A stretch of DNA of 63,884 bases, the filler included, from Dugesia japonica (lineage: Eukaryota), in NCBI GenBank assembly GCA_001938525.1. It is 6 parts of 6 records of this genome, joined end to end, with 100 filler letters (N's around TTAATTAATTAA, not from the genome) between each part and the next. Parts side by side here need not be neighbours in the genome. Positions count along the whole stretch, not along the records: positions 9,968 to 23,383 come from MQRL01595985.1; 5 more parts are not named here. One strand, given 5' to 3'. The position numbers and the translations under genes are program-made. Shown in pieces: positions 152 to 53,074 of the stretch. The notes below the pieces were generated by a model. The model made no database searches. It was not told the origin of the DNA and saw nothing but the letters and a program-made list of their open reading frames with translations. Numbering within the stretch: the stretch's first letter is position 1; each line of letters begins with the position of its first letter.

Positions 152-289
152 ATGAAAAAAATGAGTTTATTCAGTCTGTCAACAAAGATTCATGCAATTA
201 TACTTAATATAAGATGGCTAAAATTTTTTAATTTTAACAATTTTTCAATAAAAAATTCTTTCTCTATAACAATATTTTATTAAAATTAC

Positions 290-2427: not shown

Positions 2428-2592
2428 TTTCATTGAAATAATAGCTTCGATCAAATTCAATTGTTGTTTTATAGATATTCGAATTTTTTACTATTGTCTT
2501 CTTTAGGAGATTCCTGAAGAAGACAATAGTCGAAAATTCGAATATCTATAAAACAACAATTTAATTTGATCGAAGCTATTATTTCAACGAAA
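2428..2592. repeat. 165-bp near-perfect palindrome carrying a hammerhead motif (PLE inverted pseudo-LTR junction)
   Basis: About 80-bp arms with a 3-nt loop at 2509-2511. The right arm has gagattc-CTGAAGA-a-GAC(aata)GTC-GAAA-AT-TC-gaatatc. Confidence 0.8.
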
Positions 2593-3218: not shown

Positions 3219-3897
3219 TAGGTATTGCAAAATAACCAAGTTTTGGTTTGACCGGTAAACAGTAAATATTTTGTTTGTATGTACAAAGAAATAATTAATA
3301 ATAATATTATAATATGTAATAAAAGTTTAATTTATTAATAAAATAAACCAAAAAACGTAAATANCAATTAACAATAATAAACCATTTAAAAAGTCTTTTA
3401 AATATCAATTAAAAGATCTTTTTGTGCATTGAAATATGCACGCTGCAGAAACATTGTATTTACCCGTGGTATCACTGAACCTTGCTCTTATTTTTGAGCA
3501 CATTGCCTATACTGATAAAAAAAACTCGCTTAGACTTAACAATTGTTGGCTTTATTAAATATTTACAAGTGTTAAATATTTACCTCGACTCTGTTCTTCT
3601 TCAAGCACAGCAATTTCTTTTTTAATTAATTTTGTTACAGCTTCGGTATTTTTTGTTATTGGATTGTTGGAAATGAATGAATATATACTTTGTATATCCA
3701 TTGTATATTTATGACAAAACGTAATATATATTTTCATGACGGTTAATTTTGTTTTTTAATTAGTTGTATATGATTTCAGTAATTTTTCAAAGTATCAAAA
3801 ATAATTTTGACATTATTTTTAAAAAGTACCGAGTTAATTTCGGTAATCATATTGGCCAGAAAAACCAGTTAATCGTTTACCGGTACTGTAATTCCTA
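3219..3897 (-). mobile_element. hAT DNA transposon deletion derivative
   Basis: Imperfect TIRs TAGGTATTGCA / TAGGAATTACA (reverse complement). 8-bp TSD ttgtagat/ttgtagac. Minus strand keeps hAT C-terminal-like peptides KKEIAVLEEEQSRGKYL and MCSKIRARFSDTT. Confidence 0.75.
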
Positions 3898-3997
3898 TTG
3901 TAGACTCACNCAATAGTAATCATCACAAAATATACGATAAATTGTTTGTCCTGGTACTTTAGAATTGCATTGTTACTTTACTATATTTTTTATCATT

Positions 3998-4067
3998 TAC
4001 CGTATTAGAAGACTTATTTTTTTTTAACATTTCTGGGGAAAACCACATCTTATATTCTAATACGGTA
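3998..4067. mobile_element. Tiny collapsed pogo-like MITE
   Basis: TACCGTATTAGAA...TTCTAATACGGTA inverted ends with TA at both extremes. Confidence 0.4.
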
Positions 4068-5149
4068 TTTGTAATTTAATACTCGTTTGTTGCTCACTGT
4101 TGATTTGTAATACTTTGCGTCATGTAACACCGGTGGTTCATAGATAATTTTCGAAAAAGCACAAATTTATTTATTTTCATGGATTTTTTGTGTCTTTGTT
4201 AATAATTTTCTTTTGTGATTACTTTTGAACATAAAAAAATTACAATTCTCACAAAATATTATACAATTAAAAATTCGTTTTCATAACGTGAATTTGACTT
4301 TTTTATATACATTTGCAATGTTGCTTTCTTGTTATCACGATTTATAATTAAATATAAAAATATGCGACGGTATGAATGTGCTAATATGCATAATAATTAT
4401 TCTGCGTAATTAACAAAAATTATATTTAGCGAAATGGTGAAATTTTTTAATAATATTTATAAATTCTTATATTAGAAAAATTATCTCTTATTTATTTAAT
4501 CAAAAATGATAAATTTATATTGAAACATTGTCATTTATATCAATCTGATTAAATATGTAATTAATTATGATGATAATCTTTGGAAAAAATAAATTAGCGT
4601 CGTATTAAAATTGAAAAATAATTTCATTTATTTTTNNNNNNNNNNNNNNNNNNNNNNNNNNNNNNNNNNNNNNNNNNNNNNNNNNNNNNNNNNNNNNNNN
4701 NNNNNNNNNNNNNNNNNNNNNNNNNNNNNNNNNNNNNNNNNNNNNNNNNNNNNNNNNNNNTTGTTTTATTTTTAATTTTAATTAAAAAACTTCATTACAT
4801 TTATAACCAATAATTAATGGAAAATAAATTAAATATTAAATAAGCGGCATAATTTGAATGCTATTTTTTATTATCGTGTTTCCCATAAAATAAAACCTAG
4901 CTTGTTTTCAGACGATTTTCAGTTTGTTTTTAATATAAGACGTACCCCAAAAATAAGATCTAATAAAAAAATATAACGTATCAAAATGGTATATAATAGT
5001 TTTATCATTAATCTATTTTGTTTTTATGTTAAATATTCTATATGAAAATAAACTATTTTAGCTGCAACAAATTATTTTTTTTATAATATTAAAATTTATA
5101 AATTTAATGTTTAAATAATCTAAGCATCGATAAATGTGTGCAAGTCTTT

Positions 5150-5729
5150 TACTGCGAATGAACACAAAGGTGCATCCTCAATCTAAATTCCTTCTACTGG
5201 TTACGAAGTGCCCGTGTTACCTGTATTTTGACAAATCACCTAGATAGCAAAAAGGCTGCACCACTTATATTCACTAAGGGAAATAGAGAAAAGATTGTTT
5301 GTATTTCAGGTGTTTATGTAATGGAAACCTAAAAAGCTTGGAGTATACAAGCCGTTATAAAAATGGGTTGATTTAATGATTCCTTTTCTTTTTCCAGAGC
5401 ATCAAAGAGGATTATTAATCTGGGACTCTGCAAATACGCATCGCGCAAAAGAAATTAAAAGCTTTCTCGCAGAGAGAATGATTGATCAAATAATTATTCC
5501 TGCTGGCATGACACCCTATCTTCAAACTCTTGATATTACAATAAATAAGCCATTCAAAGATTACTTGAGAATAGAAATTAATGATTACATTGAAAATATA
5601 ATTGAAAAAAATAAGCATGGAAACTTTGTAAAACACAGTCTAAAAGAGATTGTTAAATGGGTAAAGAATTTATTGTGTTTACTATCGAAATGTCTTTGTA
5701 ATTTGGCCGGAAACTTGGAACTATTTTGA
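5150..5729 (+). pseudogene. pogo-family DDE transposase remnant
   Basis: KKAAPLIFTKG, LLIWDSANTH and IPAGMTPYLQTLDITINKPFKDYLR are typical DDE_1/pogo motifs. Frame is disrupted upstream of 5376. Confidence 0.85.
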
Positions 5730-7303
5730 AGAATTTCATCCATAACACACCTTGAGAAAGTAGTGAAATCTTATCTCCACAATAAGTGACGCGAAATAAT
5801 AGGTAACTGCTATCGAATCTCTTCTTTTGCTAATAGTTTTCTCCATTTCGATTTCACTTACGGCTAATGTGTTGTTGATTTTGCCTATGTCTTCGATAAT
5901 GGCAGTTTGCGATTGTGTTGTAACTTCATTGCTGTTGTCTAAAGTTTTTTCTTGACTACCAACATCAGTTGATCATTTTTCTACATCCTGATTTCTTTTT
6001 AATATTTTTAACAAACTATCCATTTCTAAAATATTAGGATATAAAATGCANNNNNNNNNNNNNNNNNNNNNNNNNNNNNNNNNNNNNNNNNNNNNNNNNN
6101 NNNNNNNNNNNNNNNNNNNNNNNNNNNNNNNNNNNNNNNNNNNNNNNNNNNNNNNNNNNNNNNNNNNNNNNNNNNNNNNNNNNNNNNNNNNNNNNNNNNN
6201 NNNNNNNNNNNNNNNNNNNNNNNNNNNNNNNNNNTAACTTAAGAAACGTATTATCTGTATCAGTTGGTTGTCATAAAAACAGTGATACAGAAAACAAATT
6301 ATATAATGTATATAAATTTTAGCAAGTTATTTTTATTTTTACATCAAAATTTTTAGAAATTATAAATTTCACGGAGCTCATGTAATTCATTCGAGGATCC
6401 CTTAAACTCCACGTAGCACACTTTGAAAACCAACAAAAAAAAATTCTAATAAAATAAACATTGTTATTAATTTTTTTAACATGGTGATATAATGGACAGG
6501 GAAAAAAATCTTCCGAATAATGAAATTTTAGTTTTACATCGAACAAGAAACAAGCTGTAATTAAAAAATATTTATATTCAAATATAATAATAATAATGAA
6601 ATTATATATTTAATTACCAAATCGATCTTTTTGTTAAGATTTTTGCAATAAAATATAAAAATTAAATTTAGATTCCTTTTTCTACAAAAGCAAAATTTTT
6701 TGTATAGGAAACTTTTATTTAATCTTATTCAAATGAATTTTTTATACAGACTGGTTACGGTAAATTATTTTTTGTAAATTTAATATTGATTAAATTTTAC
6801 ATTTCATAATGTCATAAAACCTTACATTAATATGATAATTTTATTCCAATGCATATAGCATCCATCATTAATTGCGGTAGATTTTAAAATTTAAAGATAA
6901 CAAGTAATTATTGATTTACTTTAATGATAATATCAGTGTTAATTTGATTTTGAATACAACGTCTAGTCAAATAGATTTGTATTTTAAAATTTTAATATAT
7001 ACATTGAGTACTAAAATTGTTTTGATAGATAATCATGCGTTATAATCAGTTATTTCAAATTATTATTAAATTTGGTATTCCCCATACACTTTCATTTGTT
7101 TTAATTTTGTAAGTTAATAACATTGTTGTAATTTATTGAGATTATTTATTTCTTATTAATTTCAATTACTCATTTTTCTGGATTTATTTTCTTATTTCAA
7201 ATCAATTCAGTGCGTATTTTTCATTTCAAAATTTTTATTATAATAATAAATAAATATATTAAACAAAATCAATATTGAATAAAAATATTGTTCAAACAAA
7301 TTA

Positions 7304-7868
7304 CACTGACCTTCATAATTATTTTCCCACTTCATATGTTTTGTTAAAAAATTTTGTAAAGATTAATTTGATTTTTCCAAACATCTAGAATTTTTAATCA
7401 ATTAGTTGAAGAAAAATTCTGTTGCTTTCCTGGTCGTCTCAAAGCCCACATCTCAACATCATTGAAAACATCTGATAAGAAGAATTCCTCTCATGAAAAG
7501 GAGAGTTTTTTTTTACAATGGTCCTATTTCAATTATGACAAGAAATTGAACACCAAGTGTTAGTGAAGCTTATGAACAGTATTCTAAATAAACTTAAACT
7601 GATGTTAAAGGTTGGCCAATAAATTATTCTGCAATTCTAAAAAAGAAAATAATATTGGCGTCTAATTATTTTAGATGATTTTACTTGTTTTCTCTATATA
7701 TTTTTAAATTGTTTTGGATTTTTTTACAACTAGTACGTTATAATGGCTGAATAAAAGCATTAAAATGATATAGATTCCTATAACTTGATTCTCCTGTTAT
7801 TATTTATAATCAATTATAAATATTTTTACAAAACATTTAAGGTGGGAAAATAGTTATGGAGGCCAGTG
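7304..7868 (+). mobile_element. Tc1/mariner deletion derivative
   Basis: About 40-bp TIRs CACTGACCTTCATAATTATTTTCCCAC / CACTGGCCTCCATAACTATTTTCCCAC (reverse complement), flanked by TA. Internal WSSQSPHLNIIENI matches Tc1 WPSQSPDLNPIENLW. Confidence 0.85.
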
Positions 7869-7951
7869 TAATTAATAAATTTATTAACCACAATAACTAA
7901 AAAAATCATATTTAATTAACTTTAAATTACAAGCGATTAGTTAGCAAATAC

Positions 7952-8222
7952 GGATCATTTGTAGAATCTCCTCCAAATTCAAGTTTAGTTGTAGATTCTA
8001 CAATTGAGTTTGATATTTAATTTTTTAAACCTTGATCAATTTTTAAATATTTAAATTTTAAATATTTTTTAAAATATTTTTTCATCATAATAAGTTGATT
8101 TTATTTATTGAATTTCTGAAATTTAAATTTCTGTTTATGCCAGGAGAAATTCTACAGTTGGTCAAGTTGTGGGGTATTCTGCAATTGATTCAAATTGAGG
8201 GGGGAGATTCTACAATTGATCC
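7952..8222. mobile_element. MITE with GG termini (possibly Merlin-like)
   Basis: TIRs GGATCATTTGTAGAATCTCC / GGATCAATTGTAGAATCTCC (reverse complement). Internal ATTCTACAATTG repeats. Flanks gcaaatac/acaaatag match 6/8. Confidence 0.55.
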
Positions 8223-9352
8223 ACAAATAGAATTGGAAGTAATAATTTGGAAAAATATTTATTAGTTTACTCGAAGAAATATCGTAATTAGATTTTACTA
8301 GACTTTATTTTATACTTAATTAGGTTGATTTATTTATTTGTAATTTGAAAATAATTTAAAATTAACGGCCCAAAATATTGGCTTAAGTTTTTTTTGGCTA
8401 TAATATTGCTTTATTCTCGTTTCACTTTCAAATATAAAAATTAATTTTTCTTAAATTTTAGTTTCATTGTTTATCAATTCTTGGTTCTAAACGCTATTAT
8501 TTTTTATAAATTTATTGATTAATATACTTTCAACTATTATTGAGAAAATTTGGTTAAATAGAAACCACATCGATTGTTTTATATTTTCATCGTTTTTAAA
8601 TGCACTTTTATTATCATATTATTAAACTTGGAACTANNNNNNNNNNNNNNNNNNNNNNNNNNNNNNNNNNNNNNNNNNNNNNNNNNNNNNNNNNNNNNNN
8701 NNNNNNNNNAAAAATTATCTTCAATTTATGTACAAATAAAGTTGATTTTACTAGGGTATAATTATTTTGCCAAATATTAAATAACTGTCTCTTTAAATAG
8801 CTATTATTGCATGTTTGTTTTTGCTTGCATTTTAAAGGAAATTTTTTATATTGTTTGTCTATGTAATTTGGGAAATTAATATAGAAAAAATATTTGTATT
8901 CAATTAGTTAGGCTTTATTTTTAGAACTTAAGTTAGCAATTCGTTTTTAGTATAATCCTAAATTTGGATGTACAATACTTACGGGAAGGTTTGACATTTT
9001 TCTCAATGTGTAACAGATATTTATACATTTTTGATCGATTTTTGTTTCTCAAAAATTACTAGAGAATACTTATCGGACTTAACCATTGATAACGTTTTTA
9101 AAGTTTCAATGAATTAAAAAGCGTAAATAAAAATCTTTTTATTTAATAAATTTTTAGAGATTCTAATTTTCGACAAGTCTTATAGAAATTCTTTGTAATT
9201 TACACTTTTCGATAAGATTTTACTTTACTTTTACCATTTATTTCTATTTCGGTAGTAAACATAGTATAGAATCCATATAATATAGAAGGCGTTGATTATC
9301 AGCCTGATTTTCAAAAATAAGAAGTATTAAAATTTAAAATTATGTTCATTAA

Positions 9353-9641
9353 CCCTTTATCTGCGTCTAGTTTTAATGGCGTCACGCGTAATGAAAATTT
9401 TTTAGTAAATTCGACACCGAAATGACTTATTTCCGGTATATGCTAAAAAAAATTATCTAGTGCATAATATATTTTTAATATATCTATTGTTATTGTACTA
9501 TTCCATAATGTTTCTTCTACTACGCGACGCATCATTAAAACACAATGTAACTAAGTAGCAGTCATGACGAGACCTAATCGTCATACGCTTTTGGGATTAG
9601 AATTTTATGACGAGACATACTCGTTATACACAGGGAATAGG
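9353..9641. mobile_element. piggyBac-like MITE (degenerate)
   Basis: TTAA|CCCTTT...ATAGG|TTAA with subterminal ATGACGAGAC repeats. TIR match is only partial. Confidence 0.45.
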
Positions 9642-9867
9642 TTAATAAAACTTTAAGCAAATATATGAAAACATATTTGGATTTCTCAGACTGTAAACAA
9701 TTGATGACTAACTTGTTGATCATTTGAAGTGTGAAATAACTATTTGCAAACTCTAATTATATTTGAAGATATAATTTTTTCAAATATTCATAAGTTCTTT
9801 AGCTACTTTTATTTCAATTTTGAAAATGTGTTTAAATCAAATAGCCTTGTATTTTCACGTTCAATTA

Positions 9868-9967
9868 NNNNNNNNNNNNNNNNNNNNNNNNNNNNNNNNN
9901 NNNNNNNNNNNTTAATTAATTAANNNNNNNNNNNNNNNNNNNNNNNNNNNNNNNNNNNNNNNNNNNN
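9868..9967. other. Artificial scaffold spacer N44-TTAATTAATTAA-N44
   Basis: The same spacer occurs at 23384-23483, 32579-32678, 44405-44504 and 54374-54473. It puts stop codons in all six frames. Confidence 0.95.
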
Positions 9968-10291
9968 ATCGTTTTCTTCCATTTTCTTGTAATCTATTGG
10001 ATGATGTAAATATTGTAAAACATCAGAATAGTTTTTTCGTCGCTGTTTATTCCTATATATTAATACAGAATGTAGTTCTTTACTTAGTAGCGTATTTTGA
10101 GATAACAATTCATCAGTAGCATGTTTTTAATTTACATTAGAATGAAGTCAATATCATCGCAAAAAATGAAATTTGCAAAGTTTTAGGTAGTAAAAAGTGA
10201 AAAGAAATTTACCAAAATAATTTATCGGTGATTCGGTAATAGATTTTGGTCCGATTAACTGGTTAATCGTTTACGGGTTTTGCATACCCTA
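9968..10291 (-). mobile_element. hAT element end with transposase fragment
   Basis: End ...TAACTGGTTAATCGTTTACGGGTTTTGCATACCCTA resembles the 3897 hAT terminus. Minus ORF KQRRKNYSDVLQYLHHP is hAT-like. Confidence 0.55.
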
Positions 10292-10804
10292 ATGATAGGT
10301 AATGTACACTAGCTTTAAACATTTTTTATTTGCACAATAATCTCCATGATTATCATATAGACAGGAAATATTATCTGGTATACATAGTTGTACATGTTCA
10401 TTTGAGTTAAAATTAACAAATCGAAGACTCGTGAAAAAGTGTTTGAGAGTATTCATTTTCTTTACATTCATGTGATAATTCACCTAAAACAACGTATCAT
10501 TAGTAATGGCTTCCAAGTCCGTGAGAATTTGAATTGGATCAAATTTACAATCTCCATCAATCCACCTGAGATGATGACGCCAATTTTGTAATTACGCATT
10601 GGTTTGTTGAGCATATTTTGATAGACTATCCATTGATTCCACCATGTTAAACATATAATAAAAAGGTTGGAGAATATTATTTACATACATTATACATAAT
10701 TCTTAAATTACATAGTCGGCATTATTATCCTGAAAAGCTTCATAATCAATGAAAAACAAACACATTTTAATTATTTATTGATAATCACATTAACATTGTT
10801 TATA

Positions 10805-10905
10805 CTGACTTTTGAGCAATTCAATACAACATTGACCACATAGAAATGTCAATGGATTCTGATACATAATTTCATTGTATTCGAAATGTTGTTGCATACG
10901 CTATA
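10805..10905 (-). pseudogene. Polinton adenain-like protease C-terminal fragment
   Basis: QHFEYNEIMYQNPLTFLCGQCCIELL carries the Q..CG..C oxyanion/catalytic Cys motif and resembles RYQDPFTTTCGQHCL near 21240. Confidence 0.6.
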
Positions 10906-10913
10906 ATATTGTT

Positions 10914-11085
10914 AGTAGTAGGGAAATGACGAGTTAGACATCCTCATAGCAACAAGGGCCCGTTTTGGGCGCGGAAAATGGTGGATGGTGAATTGTGAGA
11001 AAAACAACACTTTTTAGTTAAAAAACCGAAGAAACCGAGCGAGGCTATAAGGGAAGGGGGTCTAACTCGTCATTTCACTACTACT
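10914..11085. mobile_element. 172-bp mini element with Polinton-type AGTAGTAG termini
   Basis: 26-bp TIR AGTAGTAG(G/T)GAAATGACGAGTTAGAC with 1 mismatch. No clear TSD. Confidence 0.7.
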
Positions 11086-11396
11086 TGAAGTATCGATGAT
11101 CGATGATTTTTCCCAGAATGAAAAACTAACAAAAGAGACCAAAATTGATGAAAAATATTTAACTAAAATATTTAACTAAAATAATAAACTTAAAGATTAA
11201 ACTAAAATATTAAACTAAAATATTAAACTAGAGACGATGAAGAAAAAGTGGTTATAAAAAAGTCCAGCAAGGAAAGGGTAAAAAAGGTTTAAGTGGTGGA
11301 TTATGGTGGTGGGTTTATTATATATTAATATCATTTTTACGTTCATTAAAAAATTCTTCATTATATATTTTGTAATAATCAATATTAGGTTTGTTT

Positions 11397-11705
11397 TCAT
11401 GTTTTATGTTTGGGTTTATTAATTTTAGTTGTATCTTGAATAAAATTTTGTATTGGATCTTTATTTTTAATAGGTTTAATTTCTTTAGGTTCTTTAAATC
11501 GTTTTATCAAAGACGAAAATGTTCCATTAACACTTCTATTTTGATTTATGGTTCTCTTTTTCTTATTATATGGAGTCTTATACATGTTTAAAAATTTTAC
11601 AGACTTTTCACTTATATTGTATTTGTGAGCAAAACTAGAAACTGAATAGTTAATAAAATCATAAAAAGATAACATTTCATACAATTTAGAATCAATACAA
11701 GCCAT
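11397..11705 (-). CDS. Hypothetical basic protein (Polinton A accessory?)
   Basis: 102-aa ATG-started ORF, divergent from the 11878 ORF. No recognisable domain. Confidence 0.35.
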   Translation of the reverse strand: MACIDSKLYEMLSFYDFINYSVSSFAHKYNISEKSVKFLNMYKTPYNKKKRTINQNRSVNGTFSSLIKRFKEPKEIKPIKNKDPIQNFIQDTTKINKPKHKT

Positions 11706-11728
11706 TTAATATATTTTGAAAATAATTA

Positions 11729-11845
11729 CCATACTGTTTCTATACCTTACCCTAACTATACTATACTGTTTCCATACTGTTTCCATACCTTATCCTAACC
11801 ATAGCATACTGTTTTCATACTGTTTCCTTACCTTACCATAAGCAT
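11729..11845. repeat. Short tandem repeats (CATACTGTTTC / ATACCTTACC units)
   Basis: Several imperfect copies lie between two divergent ORFs. Confidence 0.7.
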
Positions 11846-11877
11846 ATTTTCATTTCCTTAAATTATTAGTATAGAAA

Positions 11878-12459
11878 ATGGGAATCAGTAAAGAAAATTA
11901 TTCTGTGACATTAAATACTTTATTTGAGACATTCAAAAATGTAGAGGATATTACAAATATGAGTATAGAAGAAGTTGAAAAGTTTATTAAAATTCCAATT
12001 ACAAAAGAGTTTGTTAATGAGAAGTTAAACATCATGAAAGAGATTTTGACTAAAATTGAGGAATGTAAAGATGAGGAAGGTAAAAAAGTATTTAAAGCAT
12101 TAATTACTATTGTTTTATGTAAAAGCACAGAATCGGATTGTAGAAGATTATTTATGGAAAATTTTGCACTAAATAATCAAGAAGCATGTAAAATATTAGA
12201 TGAATTAAAAAATAAATTAAAGAAAGAAAGAGATGAACATAACAAGTTAAAGGAACAATGTAAATTAGAAAAAAAACCAAAGACTGTAGTATTGCCTGGC
12301 TTCAAATCAACTATAATTACAGAGAGTAATATCAAACTTTCTACTGATAGATGCTTACAATTATTTAGTGCAACAGAAATAAATCATAAAAATTTAAATG
12401 AAAAAATGACACGAATACCCGTTCCAGCAGGATTTGAAAATGATGTCTCCCGTTGTTAA
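11878..12459 (+). CDS. Hypothetical 193-aa helical protein upstream of the Polinton A MCP
   Basis: Long uninterrupted ORF, K/E-rich, with protein-like composition, co-oriented with the MCP. Confidence 0.5.
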   Translation: MGISKENYSVTLNTLFETFKNVEDITNMSIEEVEKFIKIPITKEFVNEKLNIMKEILTKIEECKDEEGKKVFKALITIVLCKSTESDCRRLFMENFALNNQEACKILDELKNKLKKERDEHNKLKEQCKLEKKPKTVVLPGFKSTIITESNIKLSTDRCLQLFSATEINHKNLNEKMTRIPVPAGFENDVSRC

Positions 12460-12566
12460 ATTAAAAAAGATAAAAAGATATCCATTGAACAAAAACCATC
12501 AACTGGACAAGATAGATAAATGTAAGGGAAAAGACTAAATAAATGTTATAGAAAAGGGGCTTTCAC

Positions 12567-13860
12567 ATGGAGTTAGATGCAAACAATAAATTTCTACACT
12601 TACAAACTAAAAATGATTTATTGAAGATAAGTCGAATTAGTGGTTCCATTAACAATTTAAACAAGTCTGTGGAAATAACATTTCAATCACTACAATCAAC
12701 CAACCCCCTAGACATTGAAAATTCAAAGTTTTATTACAAGATTGAAATTAATTATTTAGATGCAATCAAAACAGATGTAACACTAGAGAACAATTGGTTT
12801 CCTAATTTATTCAATTCCATGAGATTGGAACTTGGATCATCAACAGTTGAAGATTTAGAAATTGTAGGGATTGCTTCTACCATATTAAATTTAATAATGT
12901 ATGACAATTCTAGTTTACCTTGTACTATGAATTATGCATGGATTCCGGATGTAAAAACCGGAACAATAGATGATCCAAGCTTTACTAAAAGAAAGGAATT
13001 GTATTCAACCAAGTATGAAGGTTATTATCCTTCAAAGAATCTGTTTGGTTTCTTACAGAATTATAATAGATTACTATTTAATGTTTTTATTCAACTGGAT
13101 TGGATGAGTAATAAACAAGATGAATTAATATTCTTTGGAAAGAAAGATCACAAAACTACAATTAAAATTAATACCCTTGAACTTCATATTCCAGAGTAGA
13201 CCTTAAACCCTAAAGTAGAATTAAATTACTTGGAAAGAATATCAACAAATAAACCAATACAAGTAAGCGTCTTAGAAAGGGTTACAGGTAGAATTTCAAT
13301 TTCGAGTGGCAATAATTATTCTGTAAAATAAGGAAATCAACCATAAAGACCTAGATTTATAATACTAGGTTTAAAGACTAATATTATTGGATTTGATATT
13401 AATAATAATCTATTTTCACAAGGATACCAAACAGTAATTAAAGCACTTGCTCCTGCCCTTGTGGATACAATAAATAATTATTATCTCAAAAGCATACAGA
13501 TACAATTGAATAATACTTATTACCCCATCAATCGAATGGAATATGATGTACAGAATAATTATAATATATTTCTTTATCAATCATATGTAGAAAGTTGTAT
13601 TTCATTTTTTAACTCTTTGTATAACCACCCACAATTAAATATTATCCAATGGAGTAAATTGTATCCAATATTCTGTTTCGATACCAGTGCACAAGATGAT
13701 AAGTTAATAATTAATAATGTATATGTAACACGTCACATTTCAAAAGATTCAGAATTAAAGGGTGAATTGTATTGGATAATATTACAATAAAAGCATGTAG
13801 AATTAAAGATTGCAAATTCAAAGATTATTTATACAGAGCATGTAAAGGGAATGGATATAA
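12567..13860 (+). pseudogene. Polinton/adintovirus-type major capsid protein, lineage A
   Basis: One frame with in-frame stops at 13197, about 13329, about 13344 and 13788. Motifs NNWFPNLFNSMRLEL, RPRFIILG, IQIQLNNTYYP and LYPIFCFDTSAQ. Confidence 0.8.
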
Positions 13861-13925
13861 AGTGATGTAAGAAGAGTTATCCAAGATTGAACAACCAAAG
13901 TAATAATCAGAAATTGTGAATTAAA

Positions 13926-14504
13926 ATGTCTTCAATTAATTATGAATGTATTAAATGTAAAAAACTATTAAGTAAAAAGAATAAAGCTAGACATGATAGA
14001 ACATGTAAAAGTTTCAGTGACTGAACCAATGAAATAACTAAATTGTGGAATGATATAAGGTTATCCAAAAGGTTATCCAAATGGTTATTCAAAGGGGTTA
14101 TACAAGGTGGTGATTTACAATTTTCTAAATTAACATCAGCAATTCTTAACTCAAAACTTAACCCTTTCACAACAGCCAAGTATCCAGGTATAAGACACTT
14201 GTTTAAACATAATTACACTGGTCCTGGTACAAGGTCACATATAAGGTTAGATGAAAATAATAAACCAAAACCAGGAGAAGAACCTATTAATAGAGTAGAT
14301 CATTGTGCTTTAAAACATGATTTAGCTTACAAATCAGAAGATTTAAGAGATAGACATTTAGCTGATGTAAACATGATACTTGATTTAAATAATATTGAAA
14401 ATTCATCAACATCTGAAAAGATACAAAGAGCTCTAGTTAAACTAGCAATGAAGGGTAAAATATTAATAGGATCGGACATAATTCCAAGTGATTTTGGAGT
14501 GTAG
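13926..14504 (+). pseudogene. C2HC zinc finger plus parvovirus VP1u-like phospholipase A2 (PLA2X-like) domain
   Basis: ATG at 13926 gives CIKC..x9..HDRTC, then TGA at 14022, then HNYTGPGT (Ca2+ loop) and DHCALKHDLAY (catalytic HDxxY). Confidence 0.85.
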
Positions 14505-15101
14505 GGACAAGAAGCGGGGGTCATATTATCAAATGAACTTCATAAAGAATATAGAAAACCAAAACACTTTCTTAAAGTAATAATAATTGATAAAGATGAA
14601 ATTTGGGGTTGTGATATAGCGGATATGATAATTAGCTCAGTTGATGGTTTTAAATATATTTTGGTGTGTATTGATTTGTATACTANATTTGGTTTTTGTA
14701 TTCCAATGATTAGTAAAAATAAAGAATCTTTACAAGAAGCATTTGAATCTATATTTGAAACTAATAATAGAATTCCAAACAGTATATGGTTTGATAAAGA
14801 AGCAGGAATTAAAAGTAAATACATGGATAAATTATTTAAGCAAAATTATATTAATTTATACCACACTGAAAATGAAGGTAAATCAGCTTTTGCAGAAAGA
14901 TTTATTAGAAGTCTAAAAAATAAAATGTATAAACATTTTACATCAGTTGGAAACAAGAATTGGAATAATAAACTATTACAAGATATTGTAAATGATTATA
15001 ATAATACCATTCATTCTTTAATTAAAGTTAGTCCATTAGAAGCTAATAATGAACCTGAAAATATTAAAGAAATAATTAATAATCATAACCATGAATATGA
15101 C
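14505..15101 (+). pseudogene. Polinton RVE integrase, lineage A (in frame with PLA2; interrupted at 15102)
   Basis: NELHKEYRK..WGCDIADM..YILVCIDLYT..IWFDKE..AERFIRSLK..YNNTIHS; DDE residues present. Confidence 0.9.
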
Positions 15102-17700
15102 AGTAGATGGATAGTAGGGGTAAAGAACAGCACNNNNNNNNNNNNNNNNNNNNNNNNNNNNNNNNNNNNNNNNNNNNNNNNNNNNNNNNNNNNNNNNNNN
15201 NNNNNNNNNNNNNNNNNNNNNNNNNNNNNNNNNNNNNNNNNNNNNNNNNNNNNNNNNNNNNNNNNNNNNNNNNNNNNNNNNNNNNNNNNNNNNNNNNNNN
15301 NNNNNTAACTGTTTTTAAATTTTTCTAATGTATTTAGTTGGCAAAATATTTAGTGTGTATTTAGGCGTAAAATTTTTTGTATGTTTTCTGGTGGCAATAT
15401 TTTTATAAAGTATTTAAGCGGTAATATTTTTTATAGGCTTTTAAGTTGGAGAAAATTTTTTATGGGAATTTTTAATAGAAAATCGGTTAAACGTTCATGT
15501 TGTTTAAATAATATGAAAATTTAAAATTTTTTAAATNNNNNNNNNNNNNNNNNNNNNNNNNNNNNNNNNNNNNNNNNNNNNNNNNNNNNNNNNNNNNNNN
15601 NNNNNNNNNNNNNNNNNNNNNNNNNNNNNNNNNNNNNNNNNNNNNNNNNNNNNNNNNNNNNNNNNNNNTTTCGAAAAAATATTTCTTCTCAAATAAGTTA
15701 AACAAGAGTCTATTCGATAGAGAAATTTTTGTTGATTCTAAATATGTTAACCTAAAATCGCCAAAGTTAATACTTGATGAAATAAAAGAGATTTTGTGAT
15801 GAAAAAATCTCAAAACTCAGAGTTTAGCGCTCAGAGCTCTGTGCAATCGACTCAAATTTAGTATTATTTTATTCAGGAGGAAAAAGTGAAAATATCGTCT
15901 AGGTAAAAATGCTTCCTAACGAAGATATTCAGCTGTCCTTTCGGATTTGGTAACCTTTTTTCAAAATTTAAAAATGAGATTCAAATTGGTCAAAGAGGTA
16001 TCTATTCGATAGAAACTCTTTCACTGATTCCAAATATGTAAACCGAAAATCATCAAACCTTATATATAAAAAGTTATATAGACAAAACATGTACTTAAAT
16101 TTGGGAGTCCGGGAGGGAATTATGAAATTTGGAAAGGGTAACTGGAATTTGAACATCAAGGTATTCATTAGATAGAAAATTTAAAGTTGAGTAGGATTGA
16201 CCTAGTTAAAAATCAAGAAACCGTATTGATAAAAAGTTATATTGAAAAAACAAGTACTTATTTAGTATTAAGAAAATAAATATTGACTACAAATTAATTT
16301 AATTTTAAATAAATTAATTATTTAAATAAGTTCAAAAAGAATTTTCTGGAATCAATTGTTTTACTGTATCAACAATATTTAATTATACACACATCACTTA
16401 AAACCTATATTAAACAGAATCTTTTATTCATTTATCATTATTTCAAAAATGACATCAATGACATTGACTAAGTATAATGCGTCTACTTTGGTTATCAAAT
16501 GTGGAAAGCCAATCAATTACTATAAATATGAATTGTTTAACTTTAGGAAAACAATCATGTACACATTTAAAGTACTTTTATAATTATTATTTATTGTATT
16601 AAAACTTTTTTTTAGGACCCGGTACAATTAAAACAGTGCTTGTATGATCTATTGATTTCAAACATAAGTGCTAATGATTTGAAAACCTTGAATGAATTCA
16701 TAAAATCAAAGGATGAGGTTCAAAATGAAAAGGCAATGATTAGTGTTGAAATATTTGGTTACAAAAGNNNNNNNNNNNNNNNNNNNNNNNNNNNNNNNNN
16801 NNNNNNNNNNNNNNNNNNNNNNNNNNNNNNNNNNNNNNNNNNNNNNNNNNNNNNNNNNNNNNNNNNNNNNNNNNNNNNNNNNNNNNNNNNNNNNNNNNNN
16901 NNNNNNNNNNNNNNNNATTCAATCTCATGTTATGCGATGATCTGGTGATTGTTTTGTGCAACATTTGGCAACTGAAATTATAATATTAAATTAGATTATT
17001 AAAGCAACCAAGATTACTTAAAGGGTAACTCCAATTTGAACATCAAAGTATCTATTCGATAGGGAATTTTATTTTGAGTAGGAAAAACATGGGTAAAAAT
17101 CACCAAATCTTGTCTGGGACTAAAGAAAANGGGATAAACCCGAGATTTTTTGACAATTTTTGAAAATTCTTTCTTCTTAATTTGTAACAAAACATACATT
17201 ATACGATAGAGAAATGTTTACTGATCAAGAAAAACATTACTTAAAATCATTAAACTTAATTTTTACAAAGAAAATTTGAAAAAATATAGTCAAAAATCAC
17301 GATTACGCTTAATCGACACTACTAAAAAGTTATTTTTTATACTTTTCATCCAAATTTAATGATCTAANNNNNNNNNNNNNNNNNNNNNNNNNNNNNNNNN
17401 NNNNNNNNNNNNNNNNNNNNNNNNNNNNNNNNNNNNNNNNNNNNNNNNNNNNNNNNNNNNNNNNNNNNNNNNNNNNNNNNNNNNATTTTTATTTCTTAAT
17501 AAATAATTAAAAATAAAAATTATCTCAAATTTAATTAAAAACCAGTCAATTTGGTAGAGGATTCTACACTGATTACAAATATATTAACCTAAAATCATCA
17601 AATCTTATAAATAAAAGTTATATTGAAAAACAAGCACATCATTTGGGAGTCCTCAATGAATATAAAAATAGGATGATAATTTATCCGGTAAGGTCAAATT
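15102..17700. mobile_element. Inserted element starting with a Polinton-type terminus, with internal dispersed repeats
   Basis: AGTAGATGGATAGT at 15102 matches the reverse complement of the termini at 42385 and 37797. Blocks CTATTCGATAG..TGATTCCAAATATG and AAGGGTAACT..TTTGAACATCAA recur across 15700-17620. Right end not defined because of gaps. Confidence 0.45.
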
Positions 17701-17854
17701 TGGGTAGTTTTTTAGATGAAGTTTTATTCTTTACCTATCCTCAGTTATCAAAGCTCTGTGAACTAGTGCTCTGCGACTTGATTTCGGTAATCAGAACTCT
17801 GCACTCTGTACACAACATTTCAGTTATCAATGCTCTGTTTACTGTTCTCTGATT

Positions 17855-18745
17855 TTTAGGACTTATGAGTTTGGATGGATAGTTTGTCCTACAATGGTAG
17901 TGGCACACTGACACAGTCGTATGAATTATCGTGGTTTTTTATGGAGGTTGTAGGTTTGTATATGGTTGATGGAATTTGTTGGTTGATGGTTTGTTGGAGA
18001 GGTAATGTATTGAAGAAGATGTTAGTTGTCGAATGTGCTTTGATTTTGTTTAAGGGCTACTATTTGATATGGTTTATCTTGTAAGTAGTAAAAGTGTGTT
18101 AAAAATTTTTTTCGTGAGGTGGAGGTTGATATTTGTGAAAAGAGCATTAATTATCTGATTTTATAAGATTTATTTGAAANNNNNNNNNNNGGTGGTTATG
18201 ACGTCATAATTTTTTGAAATCTTTATTTTGGTTAAAAATCCTGTATTTTGCTTAAATTGATGAATTTAATGAAAGTAATGTTATTTTAATGTATTTGAGG
18301 TATTTTTGATTATTTTTTCGGTATTTTGAACGAGGAAGGGTTGGTTTTTTAATATTTTCGAATGGAGAAGAAGGGAGTCTTGATATTTTTGAAATCTTTT
18401 TTGGCGGGAAATTAAAAAAAAATGTTTGGCGGGAAATTCAAAAAAATATTTTGTTTTGAAATTTTTCATTTTAATGGGGGAAATCATTTTATTATAATTA
18501 AATTAAATTTAATTAAATTAATTTGTTTATGTAAGAGATGGGACAGTCGAGGTATTTTGTAAGGGACGAGGGAGTCAAAAATTCATAAGCGCGTGATTTT
18601 CAGTGTATGTGTGTTGCATCTAAGTTGCATACGTATTGAATTTATTTAAAATATCAATAAAAATGCATAGTCACGTGGTTTTAAATGTACGTGTGTTGCA
18701 ATTGAGTTGCATCTGAGTTGCATACCTATTGTATTTATAATTAAA
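17855..18745. repeat. Polinton lineage B terminal repeat (inner part)
   Basis: Reverse-complement homology to 41410-41915 and direct homology to 39500-40035. Abuts the pPolB 3' region. Confidence 0.8.
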
Positions 18746-19189
18746 AAACTAATTACAATAAGAAACATATATTACAACAACAACTGTTTTTCTTTTCTTC
18801 CTCCAGATGGATTTCTATTGATTCCTTTATTTCTATTGGTTCCAGGATTTAAATTAATTTTGTTAATATTTAACATGCATATGTCACGCACAATGCATGC
18901 TTACTTCTTGCACAATGCATGTTTGCATTAAAAAACTTATTAAATAATTATAAAAAAATGATAATAACAACTTTTTTTAATTAAATAAATTAATGTACAA
19001 TTTTGGTCCTAAAGAGGACCGGTTATACGTTCACAAATTTTTTTTTGAGAATTTTTTCTTTTTTTTGTATTCATAATCTAAATAAAAACAAATAAAATAA
19101 CATCTAAAAATCAATTAAATAACTACCATTGTTTGAGGTTTTGTTCTTGACCAGACTAGATTGAATGAACGGTTTTATGGAGAAAATAT

Positions 19190-20606
19190 TTATATTATAC
19201 TATAGTGACCATGTGGGACACTTTTACTTTTGCCTACCCATATGCGTTTATCATCTGTATTTGTTAGTGCTAAATTTTTAGACTTAATACTGTAGAGCTG
19301 ATGGTCTTTAGATGTTATTCTAAATTGCTCTACTGAGACCGATTTTTTCTCATTATAACAGTCAAGGTAAGACTGATGAGAAATTTCAGTGTTCTCCAAT
19401 GTTATACCTTTGGCTCTCATGTTGTTCTTTTCTCCGATACAGTCTGTCCTATGTAGCTTGGACGATCTAAGCAAACTATTTCCTTATTGAGAAGAATAGC
19501 TATTAAATTGTCACCTATTTTTGTTGTTTTCTTAAATCCAGCTTTAGATGTATATGTAATCAGCTTTTTTGCTGAATGATTCCATGATAGGACATTGATA
19601 GATAGTCCTGGATTATTTTTCTCAAACTTTGGTATATCAATCAGTTTCATTGGCATATCCTCTTCATCAAAAATAAGCTCCAACATGTATTTTTATATAA
19701 TGTTACTCGGTTTTTATTCCTTTGTCTAACTTGATCACTTTTGATGATATCAAGCATACTGTAAATAAAACAGTAATTATGATTGTTTTTGATGTTTACA
19801 ATTGCTTCATTCCTTTTTAAATCTTCGGGTGTTGGATTATAACTTTTTCCTGATAGTCGACATATATCTGCAACCTTTGTAATTTTGAAATTAATTTCAA
19901 GTATTCTGTTCAACATCCAACTGGAGCCTAGTTTACTTCGTATTGTTATTTTCTCATTCAATTGGTTGATGCCATATTTAAAAAAGTTATCAGTTAATGC
20001 AACGACTCTATTTGATATCCTACAAGATTTAAACTCAAATTCTTCTCCATCAGCAGTTTTTATTATTCCTTTGAACTCTACATGGATCCCAAATTGAATT
20101 TTAACTTTCTTCATTTCTTCTATTGTCTGTAATAATTTGTTTACTATAGCTTCTGGTAACATTATTTCACGACAATTCCATCTCAAAACATCTATTTTAA
20201 GTATCCTATGACAACGATACAAATCTGATTCTATAATTACTTCATCTACTGCTGTATTATTTGCTGATCCACCAATTTGATTATTATTTTCTGTTTCTTC
20301 TGCATCCATAAATTGTTGTGACATGATATCTTCTTCATCAAGTTCAACAATTATTTCAAAACTTTTTCAATCATCAGATTCAATATTTGCTGTTTCTTCT
20401 TGTACAATATTTGTTGTTTCCTCTTTCAGATCCAAATTGATAATTTCTCCAACAACATATTCAAGTTTTTCAACTAATTTATCTTTGATTATTATTTCTT
20501 CAACATCATCCTCAGTAATAATTATTTCAACCGGTTCATCCTTAACTGTTATTTCATCCATCTTAATTCTCTTATTTACTGGTACTTCATAAAACTCACT
20601 ATCCAT
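19190..20606 (-). pseudogene. Protein-primed DNA polymerase B (lineage B) with internal deletions
   Basis: N-terminal GSSW..GKSY..AIVNIKN..YCF and IPKFEKNNPGLSINV run directly into LDRPSYIGQTV and C-terminal RAKGI..HQSYLDC..LTNTDDKR..PHGH. Confidence 0.85.
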
Positions 20607-21194
20607 CTACCTATCTAATATTGACTTCAATATATCCTTTTTACTTTTACTAAAACAAGACAAGTGTTTATTATGTGTCATATAGAAACGTGAGAAGTCA
20701 CCTAAGCCTAATACCTTACAATTAGGACACACAAAATAGTTTTTTCCATAAAACCGTTAGCCATAGTATCCTTCCATGATACTATGACAGTCACCATTAT
20801 GACTCACACTTACGCAATGGTTGTATAATTTGCAATGTTCTGAAATAATTTAATATTAATAACATAATGATTTTAACATTTTTTTTCTTAAAAAAAATTT
20901 ATTAGCTATGTTATTTTCCATTTAAAAAAACACATATAAAAGTGTTAATGTTTAATAAAACATCATGTTAGTGAAGCAATTTTATATAAAAGAAATCTCA
21001 TTACCCATGTAATTTTTAATAAAATATCTCATAGTTTTACAAAATACGTTGCAATATTTTAAATTAATTTTATTTTTTTTGATAATAAAAAAACGTATTA
21101 TTAGCATATTACTTACAAATATTTAGTAAATAACAAAGATTTCATTTCAATGAAATGCATTTATTTTTTTACAACAAGAACAAATAAATATTGT

Positions 21195-21548
21195 CAAGTA
21201 CAATGTTGTTTTTTCAACCATGATAAACAGTGTTGACCACATGTAGTTGTAAATGGATCTTGATATCGGATTTTATTGAAGACTATTGGCTTCAATATTT
21301 TCGATAAGTGTGACACCAGCATTGATGGATAATAAAGTTCTAATGGATCAAATACTAGTATTTAAGCAGGTTTATTGTAAACAGCTATCCAATGTTCTCC
21401 ACCTAGATTTGATGTGTGAGTATTAACAATTAAGGCATTGTTTACTGGGATATATTTTAGAAGTTTATCTAATGCATAAACATGCTGATCCAAGCCACTG
21501 TGATGCAATCCGATCAATCTGAATAGTACTATTAAAATAAAAACCCAT
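21195..21548 (-). pseudogene. Adenain-like cysteine protease (Polinton PRO)
   Basis: LIVNTHTSNLGGEHWIAVY..VFDP..RYQDPFTTTCGQHCL contains the H/D/Q/C residues. Disrupted by stops and frameshifts. Confidence 0.85.
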
Positions 21549-21605
21549 TAATATAATAACACTTACTTCATAACATGTACCAATTACACAACATATTGTT
21601 TACAC

Positions 21606-22447
21606 TTATACTGTTCCGTTTTCTTTTATCTGAATTTCCTTTTCAAATACTCCATAAATTATAGCACATGCCAATGTTGTTAAAGCTTTGGCAAACTTGA
21701 TTTCCAATCTCAAATGTCCTTGTTGAAGTAATTGACTCTGATTTATATCAAAATCTGTAGCAAGAACAAATGTAAAGAAAGGATAATTATTCTTAAAATC
21801 TTGGAGTGTTATTCCACAATTCATATTCTTATCCAATATCCCATATTTCGTATTATAGGTTGCAAATATGTTGTGGTATAATTATCGTTTGTAAAATTTT
21901 AAGTATATATTTCTCGATAATCAGGGTTTTTTGACAAGGAAACAGAAGCAACATCTACATTTTGAAATGTTGAACTCGAGTTTTTATAGCTACAATTATA
22001 TTGTTCACCACTTTAAAATGTAAACAGAATAAAGCTAGGTAATTGACGATCACCAAAGATTTGTTCCTTATAAAACGGTAATAATTTATTATAGTTTCAA
22101 TTATTGCTTTTTGAAGATAAGATCCATTTTCACCTTCAATTTTAAAATTTTTAAACGAAAGAAATACATTCTTAAAAAGCGTATGCAACATATAATTACT
22201 AGGAATTACATCATGAGTGTCAGTCAAATCTTTACCACCCTTATCAAATCCCTTCACGTTAATATACAATAAAGTATCATTCAAATCCAAATATTCTGTT
22301 TGAGATCCATTTACAAAAAAACTCTACGTCACTTTGTGATTCAGAAATTGAATTCATAGGAAAGACATCTTCGATAGTACCATCTTCAATTACAGCTTGA
22401 AGAGATGGTTGATTAAAAATACATAATTCAAATTTATCGCAAATCAT
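21606..22447 (-). pseudogene. Major capsid protein (PY-type), lineage B, internally deleted
   Basis: FELCIFNQPSLQAVIEDG..EFFVNGSQTEYLDLNDTLLY..NYMLHTLF; C-terminal GITLQDFKNNYPFFTF..GHLRLEIKFAKAL. Confidence 0.85.
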
Positions 22448-22476
22448 TTTTCAAATTTTGTTCCATGACCTCTCAC

Positions 22477-22863
22477 TCATTTGTTTATCCGTGATCCATG
22501 AGATTTCTTACGTTTTCTAGTATTTTGTGGTGTTTGGGCTTGATTTGTTAGCATATTAGTTATTTCAGATGCTATTTTACTAGTTATGCTTTGCGGTAAT
22601 ATGTTTGCTACTTTTAGAATCATACTGGTTACTCTGCTAGGTAATGATGACATAACCTTTCCAAGCTCAGCTAATGCATTTGATTTCAATGTGGGTAGTA
22701 TTTTTCCATCATTAGCTAGTACATCCTGAGCTGTTTTAAGAATCGGTAAAGCAAATCTACCTATTGTTCGTAACCAACCAGATCCATACTGTTTTCCAAG
22801 AAAGTAAGGTAATTCTTTACCTGCTTGACTAATACTATACATTGAAAAAATATCAGGATTCAT
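22477..22863 (-). CDS. Polinton small virion protein (PM-like), between minor capsid and MCP
   Basis: QAG..LPYFLG.QYGSGWLRTIGRFALPILK is a QxGxG motif plus amphipathic helix, typical of this position. Basic C-terminus. Confidence 0.65.
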   Translation of the reverse strand: MNPDIFSMYSISQAGKELPYFLGKQYGSGWLRTIGRFALPILKTAQDVLANDGKILPTLKSNALAELGKVMSSLPSRVTSMILKVANILPQSITSKIASEITNMLTNQAQTPQNTRKRKKSHGSRINK

Positions 22864-23330
22864 TATTTAGTTTTCTAAAATGTAAATTTAAATGGGTTTT
22901 TGAATGTTTTGGAAACTTGATTAATTTTGCGTTATCATCGCGTATATTAATTTCTATATTGTTTATATATGATGTTGCAATAGGTAAATATATTGGATTC
23001 TCGAATATTATTTGCACTACTTCATCAGTTTCATGCTTTTCTATCCATATTGCTTTCAATAAAGGTACACTAACATCTCATACAATTATAGGTTCAACAA
23101 GACTACTACAGATGAACATTTGCTGATGTAATTTCATTATTTTCGACTTGGTAATAGCTTTGAACTGACCTTCCTTCATATCTTCAAGAGAATAATTATG
23201 TTTGTCTAATCCAAAATGTTCTTGTCAAGAAATTATCAAATACAACTTTTATGAAATCATCTTGTAGCTCGAATTCAAAATATTTATCCGCATTTATAAG
23301 GCATTTCTTAAATATTTGACTACAACTTTC
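22853..23330 (-). pseudogene. Minor capsid/penton (PX) C-terminal part
   Basis: ICSSLVEPIIV.DVSVPLLKAI..FENPIYLPI..NNIEINIRDD..LHFRK. Confidence 0.8.
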
Positions 23331-25744
23331 GGTCAAATATTTACTTAATTGTTCCAATTCTGATATATATATATATATATATANNNNNNNNNNNNNNNNN
23401 NNNNNNNNNNNNNNNNNNNNNNNNNNNTTAATTAATTAANNNNNNNNNNNNNNNNNNNNNNNNNNNNNNNNNNNNNNNNNNNNTATTATTAATAATATAT
23501 TTTATAATAATATTATAAAATTTTATTATATTATATATTATTTTATATTATTATTTATTATAATAATCCCAATATAAAATAGACCCAATGCAAAAGAGCT
23601 TTAAAAAAATAATAGAAATACAATAATATAAAATGTAATAATATAATATAAATAATAATAAATAATAATATAATATATAATATAAATTATATATTATTAT
23701 ATAATATATTATTAATAATAGAATATTTTATATTATATATTTATTAATAATATAAAATTTAATTAAATAAAATAATATATCAATAATAATAATAACAAAA
23801 ATAAAATTTTTGATGGGGCTATTTTGACGGTCACTAGTTAATGGGACAGTTATTAAATTTTCCCTTAATTTAGTAATTTTTCCCTAAATTTAGTATAATT
23901 TCCCTTATTTTAGTAAAATTTTCCTTAGTTTAGTAATTTTTCAATTGGTTAAGTTTATTTTAAAATTATTTCCATTTATAATAATTTCATTTAATTTATC
24001 GTAAATTATTTTATTATTCCATAAAGTTAATTATTAAACAATAAATTTATTCAATATTTTGATTATTGTTTGAATTAATTGTGAAGCTTCCACATTGTTG
24101 AAAAATGAAACTAATTTATTTAGAATATTTTTAATTCTCTACAATTGATTTTCTTTTTAATATGAATCAATTATATTAGTTTTAAATTATTCTTATTTGT
24201 TTTCCATTGTTTAGTATACACTATTTTTTTAATTTTATGATAGTTTTGTTACCTTGGCAATAATAATATGTTTAAATTATTACTTTGGTTGGGTTCTGTT
24301 CCAACAAATCTTTTCCCTTCCAGTGAATGATTCCGTTCCGGAATTAGACTTGAATAATTTCTGTTATTTCCTAACAAGAAAGATATAAACAATGTAAATA
24401 ATTTTTTATTAATTTTTTAACACTTATTTATATCTACATTAGCTTGTACGGTACTCACGTCTCTGTGATGTTGGTTTCCACTTTATTTCCCAATTCGAAG
24501 CTTGTTTTTCTGTTGTTTACGGAATTATTGTCATTCTTGATTTGCTTTGCTACATATTCATCTACATGTTTTATAATCTTTCGTTTGCTTTCAACGTGTT
24601 CTTGTAATCATCTCATTCATCGTAGTTTTACATCCAATATGAAATTTATTGTTTTTAACTGCGTGTTATGCGTCTCGAGTATCGAGTTCATTGAAGCCAG
24701 TCGTTTGTTATTCATCTTCAGTGTCTGAGTTACTTCGATCACCTTCTCTATTTTCTTGCATACACTTTGACAAACGCTGTTCTAGGTGGCTGCATTTTTC
24801 TCTAGGATTTGTCCTACTTTTACAAATTATTGACTCTTAACGTTTAAGAATTCATTTTGAATTTCCATACGATTTCTTTGTTTGTTGTTGACTTGCCTTT
24901 TTTGATTAGAATGATAAATGATAAAAGAAAAATAAAATTTGTTTTTTCATGGCCATAGCAACTGCAGTAATTATATTTTCGAGTTGATCTATCTTTCAGT
25001 TTGACTTGGGATTCTTGATTCGATCTTTCTTCTTTATTGAACTGGTGTTCTGGTAGTCCTTTGTAATGACTTTAAATTTTCCTTCTTCAGTTATAAATAT
25101 ACTTAACAATTGTATTGCGCATTTATTTTCCTTTTAAAAGTTTTTTGTAACCACTTTCCCACTTCTCTTTGTTTCTTTTCTATTTTTGGATTAACCATAA
25201 TTGATCCGTTAGTTTTAAAATTTCTTGTAACTTTGTCGTTGTTGATTCTAGCAATTTTGTTAACTGGTTCCCATTTTTATTAAGATCATCTGATTTTTCT
25301 TTCTCTTGGATTTGTAATAGTTTGGTTTTGACAACATTTGTAAATGAACTTTCATTTTGCAGAATTTGTTTTCCCAAATCTATTTTCAAATGACTTACAT
25401 GCTTCATATTTGGTCAGCTATGTCTAACTTGTACTATTATATCCATAACTGTACAAGTTCGATAGAATCCGTTTCTTTAATGATCTGCCAAAAAGATATA
25501 TCTCGCTTGGTTTTGCGAATTTCTGTCCCTTCTGAGTTGTCTGATGCTTTTTTTTTGCTTCATTGCGTCCGCAACGTTAAACTAGCAATCTCCTGTTTGT
25601 ATCACTAAATGTTTAGTAATCTGATTGGACCCGAGTACCCTTATGTTAAACGGTTTTATTTCTTGGTCCAATAAACTTTCTCCTTGGTTAAAGGTTAACT
25701 TTTCCAGAAGTATTTAATGTGACTCAGCTCACAATGGATTTAGT

Positions 25745-53060: not shown

Positions 53061-53074
53061 AAACTTTTGTATAG

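Follow-up and report, generated by a model that had tools for sequence, protein, structure and literature searches.

A decayed polinton copy in Dugesia japonica and a family of phospholipase A2–integrase fusion proteins that is apparently undescribed

Reading frame and neighbourhood of the fusion locus

The locus studied here lies in the genome of Dugesia japonica (assembly GCA_001938525.1), in record MQRL01595985.1, which makes up positions 9,968 to 23,383 of the window, i.e. the whole 63,884-nt stretch of DNA that was analysed, composed of six parts from six records that are joined by fillers of 100 N's and that need not be neighbours in the genome. A single frame on the plus strand, starting with ATG 13926, was found to join a zinc finger, a parvovirus-type phospholipase A2 domain (PLA2, PF08398) and an rve integrase (PF00665) in a decayed fusion gene at 13926–15104, having two premature stops and a missing 3′ end. 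That the three domains share one frame had been proposed in a sequence-only reading of the window, with which both coordinates and Pfam matches agreed, and the frame was indeed interrupted, up to an assembly gap at 15134, solely by the two stops named in that reading, TGA at 14022–14024 and TAG at 14502–14504. One single codon contained an N (14686). With the stops read as X, Pfam placed PF08398 at residues 91–172 (E 6e-7, above cut-off) and PF00665 at residues 224–314 (E 1e-5, below cut-off).

The zinc finger, recognized by its pattern Cx2Cx11Hx3C, covers residues 7–27 (13944–14006; in relatives the finger is optional and has the form Cx2Cx11Hx5H), and is followed by a linker of 33 residues (5–33 in relatives), wherein the alignment places the premature TGA. 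This linker also holds imperfect short repeats of 12 nt (14055–14105) and looks rearranged in comparison with relatives. The PLA2 domain (14106–14471), identified by PF08398, alignment, structure model and fold match, begins with the Gly-Gly of a conserved GG-D-L-Q motif (14106–14111), a candidate site for a maturation protease, and carries the motifs YTGPG (14214–14228) and HDLAY (14316–14330) as well as a downstream Asp (14364–14366); it ends with a Gly that was invariant in 23 of 23 aligned rows. The ensuing linker of 21 codons (14472–14534), having 41% GC compared with 23–30% in the flanking domains, contains the premature TAG. The rve integrase then occupies 14535–15104, with its ELHK motif at 14535–14546 and its D-D-E residues at 14613, 14793 and 14895, and with the C-terminal barrel absent. 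The first in-frame ATG after the TAG (14625) comes only after ELHK and after the Asp that opens the catalytic triad (codon 230, nt 14613), and the integrase can therefore not start at 14625 and is without a usable start of its own, confirming what had been noted earlier about ELHK and this ATG. Integrase homology ends at about 15071–15104, beyond which there is a 29-nt GC-rich stretch and then the gap, and the C-terminal domain of the fusion family was not found at the Dugesia locus.

Adjoining the fusion gene on the same strand is a double jelly-roll major capsid gene (12567–13865, PF21738 by Pfam), which is in the same frame, ends 60 nt before the fusion ATG and has four premature stops, at 13197, 13329, 13344 and 13788. 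Its 15 relatives all carried PF21738 in open frames of up to 448 aa, the best being 47–48% identical over 99%, and no named reference capsid, such as that of Mayetiola, was among them. A GG near the C-terminus was present in three of the four capsid relatives inspected, a sample too small to use. A further open frame (11878–12459, plus strand, 193 aa) precedes the capsid gene; Pfam and Atlas gave no useful match for it, and judging from its position it probably belongs to the polinton element. A second open frame, of 102 aa (11397–11705, minus strand) and with no convincing family match, lies between the capsid gene and a 172-bp unit at 10914–11085 that has 44% GC and, by its sequence, 31-nt inverted arms starting AGTAGTAG. 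Polinton ends are terminal inverted repeats with AG...CT ends and a 6-bp target duplication. We take these inverted arms to resemble such an end, and the 172-bp unit is possibly a remnant of one; no matching 6-mers or 6-bp duplication were found at its flanks, and no partner arm elsewhere in the window. Two tandem arrays follow the unit, one of 13 nt (11140–11232) and one of 11 nt (11726–11854).

Among 85 open frames of at least 55 aa in 1–11,900 and 15,100–34,500 there was no Pfam match to a protease, ATPase or polymerase of the element, a search that short or broken remnants would escape, and a polymerase piece (PF03175) at 33293, within 32631–33646 on the plus strand, is unlinked to the fusion locus. 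This piece is probably of polinton origin, as are those at 19647–22866 (minus strand) and 40309–40653 (plus), which resemble polymerase, capsid and ATPase fragments and gave no Pfam match. A second rve integrase at 50750–53100 is frameshifted, shows 26–29% identity to the fused family and has no PLA2 match, and the frames after it look, we assume, like polinton virion genes. No second copy of 10801–15133 was found within the window using blastn. The Dugesia locus carries a polinton of the Maverick/adintovirus type in a truncated and dead copy, the polinton traits seen being the rve integrase with its DDE triad and the double jelly-roll major capsid protein, and a PLA2-type gene is also present, as in the virion module of the alpha (Mayetiola-class, group 2) adintoviruses in the available text of the sources on this trait (PMC8502044; 10.64898/2026.06.19.733378). 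The content of the window is eukaryotic (an RRM gene, gypsy and DDE transposon pieces), with 26.6% GC and 28 assembly gaps. The RRM-domain host gene piece is at 30806–31366 on the minus strand and resembles an SR splicing factor; gypsy-like retrotransposon pieces (rve, RVT_1) and a DDE_1 transposase fragment are found at 35706–36782, 59268–62293 and 5361–5729.

The fusion in intact relatives

Using the fusion frame as query with X at the stops, 70 protein matches were obtained, and the best intact relative aligned in one frame with 50% identity over 97% of the query. Both Pfam domains were present as precomputed in 31 of the 70, and with profiles built from the matches themselves, 44 of the 70 were recognized as single open chains with an integrase behind the PLA2, 36 of these being near-complete and 27 also having the C-terminal domain (mutual identity 33–98%, median 49%). 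In 26 of the 36 near-complete fusions there was no Met between the end of PLA2 and the ELH motif. The sought combination of PLA2 with rve thus exists in relatives, in line with the earlier proposal of an ancestral single protein, and judging by these sequences the PLA2–integrase fusion is almost certainly real and one gene in its family. Catalytic residues, D/H/D/Y/D in PLA2 and D/D/E in the integrase, were invariant in all 35 rows of an alignment of 35 of the 70 matches, selected for having both domains. The family layout is an optional zinc finger, GG, PLA2, GxG, a variable linker, the integrase core and a C-terminal barrel, in about 430–480 aa. From the end of PLA2 to ELH, the linker spans 5–99 residues (median 21, n=61 proteins) and varies freely in sequence too. 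The C2HC finger of the earlier reading is present in the Dugesia copy and is not a family trait, its pattern Cx2Cx11Hx3C being found in 0 of 219 fetched proteins; Cx2Cx11Hx5H occurred in 17 of the 219 and in 11 of the 36 near-complete fusions.

A search with PLA2 alone gave 516 representatives at 50% clustering, and 24 of the best 150 run on into an integrase, many of the others being short or fragmentary. Longer forms (812–2315 aa) gave four matches, none of which was a larger PLA2–integrase polyprotein, and a scan of bacterial and archaeal genomes gave 29 pattern matches and no relative. The only named matches, all of them partial, were from limpet and coral (P0045, P0221, P0222), which points to aquatic invertebrates as hosts of the family; similar PLA2–integrase proteins are presumably found in cnidarian genomes.

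A structure model of the intact relative P0004 (mean pLDDT 80, pTM 0.45) had confident domains with low-confidence stretches at both linkers, as for domains arranged like beads on a string. Its fold matches to retroviral integrases were strong (foamy virus integrase 4bac, Foldseek E 3e-15), those of the PLA2 were to plant (Z 7.5) and bee (Z 5.7) enzymes, and the C-terminal barrel matched chromo/Tudor-like folds with a Z of only about 6. The PLA2 of the Dugesia copy was modelled at pLDDT 86.7, with rice PLA2 2wg7 as the top fold match (Z 7.5, rmsd 3.7, 88 aligned residues), which is a middling value among helical bundles, and querying solved structures with the PLA2 sequence gave no match.

Candidate cleavage sites and alternative readings

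Glycine motifs were found on both sides of the PLA2. Ahead of its core, within 45 aa, GG was present in 27 of the 31 fusions that had enough upstream sequence (2 of 195 control windows in integrase cores), and at its end, 56 of 65 fused proteins had GG or GxG, compared with 4 of 779 control windows inside the integrase; the relatives counted share ancestry, and these counts are hence not independent. The motifs stay while linker length ranges from 5 to 99. A strict adenovirus protease rule asks for M, L or I at P4, and such a residue stood at a minority of the sites, 5 of the 27 ahead of PLA2 and 10 of the 56 behind it. The downstream motif was absent in 9 of the 65 fusions and in the Dugesia copy, which has the upstream site only. 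The ILIGS near the junction, suggested earlier as an adenain site, runs on as G-S-D, which corresponds to neither type of site, GG|X or GX|G, and a better candidate in the Dugesia copy is IQGG|D ahead of PLA2. Upstream GG was also found in 10 of 14 apparently stand-alone PLA2s, and the motifs therefore predate the fusion and could be structural; the downstream count for these PLA2s, 28 of 28, is circular and carries no weight. For mavirus, the available text gives GG|X and GX|G as the sites of its protease and lists the rve integrase among the proteins of the particle, together with a predicted alpha/beta hydrolase that was recovered in two fragments separated by a GK|G site (PMC6048507). In 18 of 36 fusions, the Dugesia copy not being among them, the helix right after GG was more amphipathic by its moment than 90% of shuffles, which may serve as an extra, weak lead.

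The best reading, which we hold with moderate confidence, is that the fusion would be a virion-packaged precursor, later split by a protease. Packaging itself we regard as probable, because the PLA2 and integrase activities would both be needed on entry, and cleavage at maturation into finger, PLA2 and integrase as fairly likely. The protein would be expressed from beside the capsid gene and incorporated into the particle, where an adenain-like cysteine protease of the element might cut GG|X ahead of PLA2 and GG or GxG behind it during maturation; the freed PLA2 would then help to breach the endosome and the freed integrase would insert the genome. Being parts of one chain, PLA2 and integrase would share a single route of packaging and reach a 1:1 ratio, much like the components of a retroviral polyprotein; the working analogy is retroviral Gag-Pol, which is packaged as a precursor. 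More tentatively, the basic finger might bind the genome and so load the precursor. Against the precursor reading stand the negative protease search around the locus, the P4 residues that mostly deviate from the adenovirus rule, the Gly motifs of apparently stand-alone PLA2s, the fusions lacking the downstream motif and the middling PLA2 fold match. A role of polinton PLA2s in membrane entry has been proposed, as far as the available text of the two sources goes (Starrett et al., PMC8502044; Yutin et al., PMC4642659).

As an alternative, the fusion could work uncut, a tethered PLA2–integrase travelling with the genome and the Gly motifs being hinges inherited from a stand-alone PLA2 gene. This we consider unlikely, yet worth weighing, for most sites deviate from the strict adenain consensus, the downstream motif is missing in 9 of 65, some linkers are just 5 residues long, and parvoviral PLA2 acts while tethered to the capsid protein, according to the available text of PMC4642659. 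Against it, GG is kept in proteins having only 1–4 residues before it (P0009, P0016, P0018, P0033), where a hinge is not needed, and the motifs are of the type cut in mavirus, as given in the available text of PMC6048507.

The precursor reading can also be extended to a broad and undescribed polinton lineage using a retrovirus-like strategy in a DNA virus, in which finger and integrase would hold the precursor on the genome, each genome would bring its own membrane-breaching enzyme, and the cuts would expose an amphipathic helix acting together with PLA2 in the manner of adenovirus protein VI, the comparison for a helix exposed after GG. This is a speculative extension that we deem improbable; if true, entry and integration would be one inherited, swappable module.

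Genome compaction, with two neighbouring genes joining and parting repeatedly and coupled by shared expression alone, is in our judgement a decidedly doubtful account. The PLA2 tree, for which 103 of 164 near-complete domains were labelled and 61 ambiguous ones left out, does mix fused and apparently stand-alone forms, requiring 19 changes (shuffled mean 24.8), at least 10 of them forced by supported branches; the 'stand-alone' class, however, takes in truncated and broken predictions, which inflates this count. For the 44 fused rows of the integrase tree, 3 changes suffice, compared with 20.5 when shuffled, in a sample biased by the fused query, and the fusion persists down to 33% identity. 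The compaction account also draws on the different nearest relatives of the two Dugesia domains, PLA2 being closest to P0004 (94/118) and integrase to P0003 (121/183; P0004 90/182). AU tests with 16 rows, whose groups were named after the trees had been seen, rejected an integrase tree in which the Dugesia copy was constrained to group with P0004 (p-AU 0.0005) and gave 0.036 for the converse constraint on the PLA2 tree. These results suggest that the Dugesia copy may be mosaic, with an exchange in the linker between PLA2 and integrase.

A programmed TAG, either read through or spliced out to give a minor PLA2–integrase product beside a major PLA2 product, had been mentioned as an alternative by the sequence-only reading and appears very improbable. 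In its favour, the stop is in frame within a linker, an 8-bp hairpin lies just before it, and the protein search returns open frames only, whereby relatives with a stop would show as split proteins. In gammaretroviral readthrough a G follows the stop, as it also does at the Dugesia TAG. The five nearest relatives by integrase were nevertheless all open, as was the nearest by PLA2, contrary to the case named earlier as a refutation of the fusion, in which intact copies keep the stop; RNA around the stop folded no better than shuffles (z = 0.33; 117 of 200 as good), giving no stable downstream structure; no GT-AG pair of in-frame, plausible length was found inside the linker; and five other premature stops lie nearby in the same frame, four of them in the capsid gene. 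Readthrough, which nothing in the data requires, and splicing were rejected on these grounds. With 2 premature stops in about 393 codons, the fusion resembles the capsid gene with 4 in 432. Both stops interrupt linkers that vary among relatives, and four more are found in the capsid gene next door; the Dugesia copy has therefore decayed, and its stops are products of that decay. Finally, a shared frame arising by chance from decay or assembly, for which the 28 assembly gaps of the window and the two linkers unlike those of relatives might speak, was rejected as having a negligible probability, since an integrase follows the PLA2 within a single chain in dozens of intact proteins that are independent of the Dugesia copy and align with it in one frame.

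Comparison with known systems

Every part of the fusion is known, and it is the joining of PLA2 to integrase that is apparently undescribed, as well as widespread. No description of a PLA2–integrase fusion was found in the openly available text covered (PMC8502044, PMC3671162, PMC4642659, PMC5803895, PMC4061559, PMC7805220, PMC3198968, PMC6048507, 10.64898/2026.06.19.733378, 10.1101/2024.03.25.586562 and 10.1101/2025.02.07.637071), and Repbase or supplements, such as the annotated genomes of 10.1101/2024.03.25.586562, may hold a prior annotation. The architecture is already present in public databases. Papers describing both genes have PLA2 and integrase separate in their available text, and in that of Starrett et al. 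2021 (PMC8502044) the main text is without the words 'fused' or 'fusion' and one map row lists Integrase and PLA2X apart. The PLA2X of alpha (Mayetiola-class) adintoviruses, as given in the available part of that paper, is likewise a parvovirus-type PLA2 of a polinton virion module that is proposed to be membrane-active, but it is a separate gene with a pX-like tail, whereas in the family of the Dugesia copy the chain runs on into the integrase; the PLA2–integrase family hence falls outside the Starrett definition of PLA2X as a stand-alone gene with a pX-like end. The adintovirus integrase in the definition of Starrett and Buck has a C-terminal chromodomain; the fused matches had no precomputed chromodomain, the fold matches of their barrel to chromo/Tudor-like structures reach a Z of only about 6, and the Dugesia copy is truncated.

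The CAP and INT of the Sf Maverick (PMC5803895, available text) are similar in that insect Mavericks have a PLA2-bearing ORF and an rve integrase with conserved catalytic residues, and different in being two separate ORFs, with a chromodomain in the integrase. The mavirus proteins MV02 and MV13 (Born et al. 2018, PMC6048507, available text) are comparable as an rve integrase and a predicted hydrolase both found in the particle, with a protease cutting at GG|X and GX|G; they differ in coming from a virophage, in a hydrolase of alpha/beta fold rather than PLA2, and in being separate genes. With the PLA2 of parvovirus VP1u (PF08398), the fusion shares the YxGPG loop and the HDxxY motif, and the downstream Asp is present in the Dugesia copy, but the parvovirus enzyme is tethered to the capsid protein and that of the fusion family to the integrase. 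Retroviral and Ty3 integrases have the DDE core and a small C-terminal barrel in common with the family, which, unlike retroviral integrases, had an HHCC-type CxxC between PLA2 and core in 0 of 36 fusions, is without a reverse transcriptase and belongs to a DNA virus.

How polintons enter cells and deliver their integrase is an unsettled question, to which one conserved PLA2–integrase gene would contribute by implying that the integrase is a particle protein and by pinpointing two places where the polinton protease might cut. The architecture could also be used as a marker for a polinton lineage, and it carries a warning for annotation, as the labels given to fused proteins mention no more than integrase, transposase or 'phospholipase A2-like'. 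The Dugesia copy itself is dead and ordinary; its value lies in the family. As minor observations, one fusion (P0022) and one capsid protein (P0234) both list a longest contig of 6660 nt, which is a hint only, and the distant fusions P0038, P0041, P0048, P0049 and P0050 have a very divergent PLA2 that keeps HDxxY, some of them on megabase contigs, and widen the range of the architecture.
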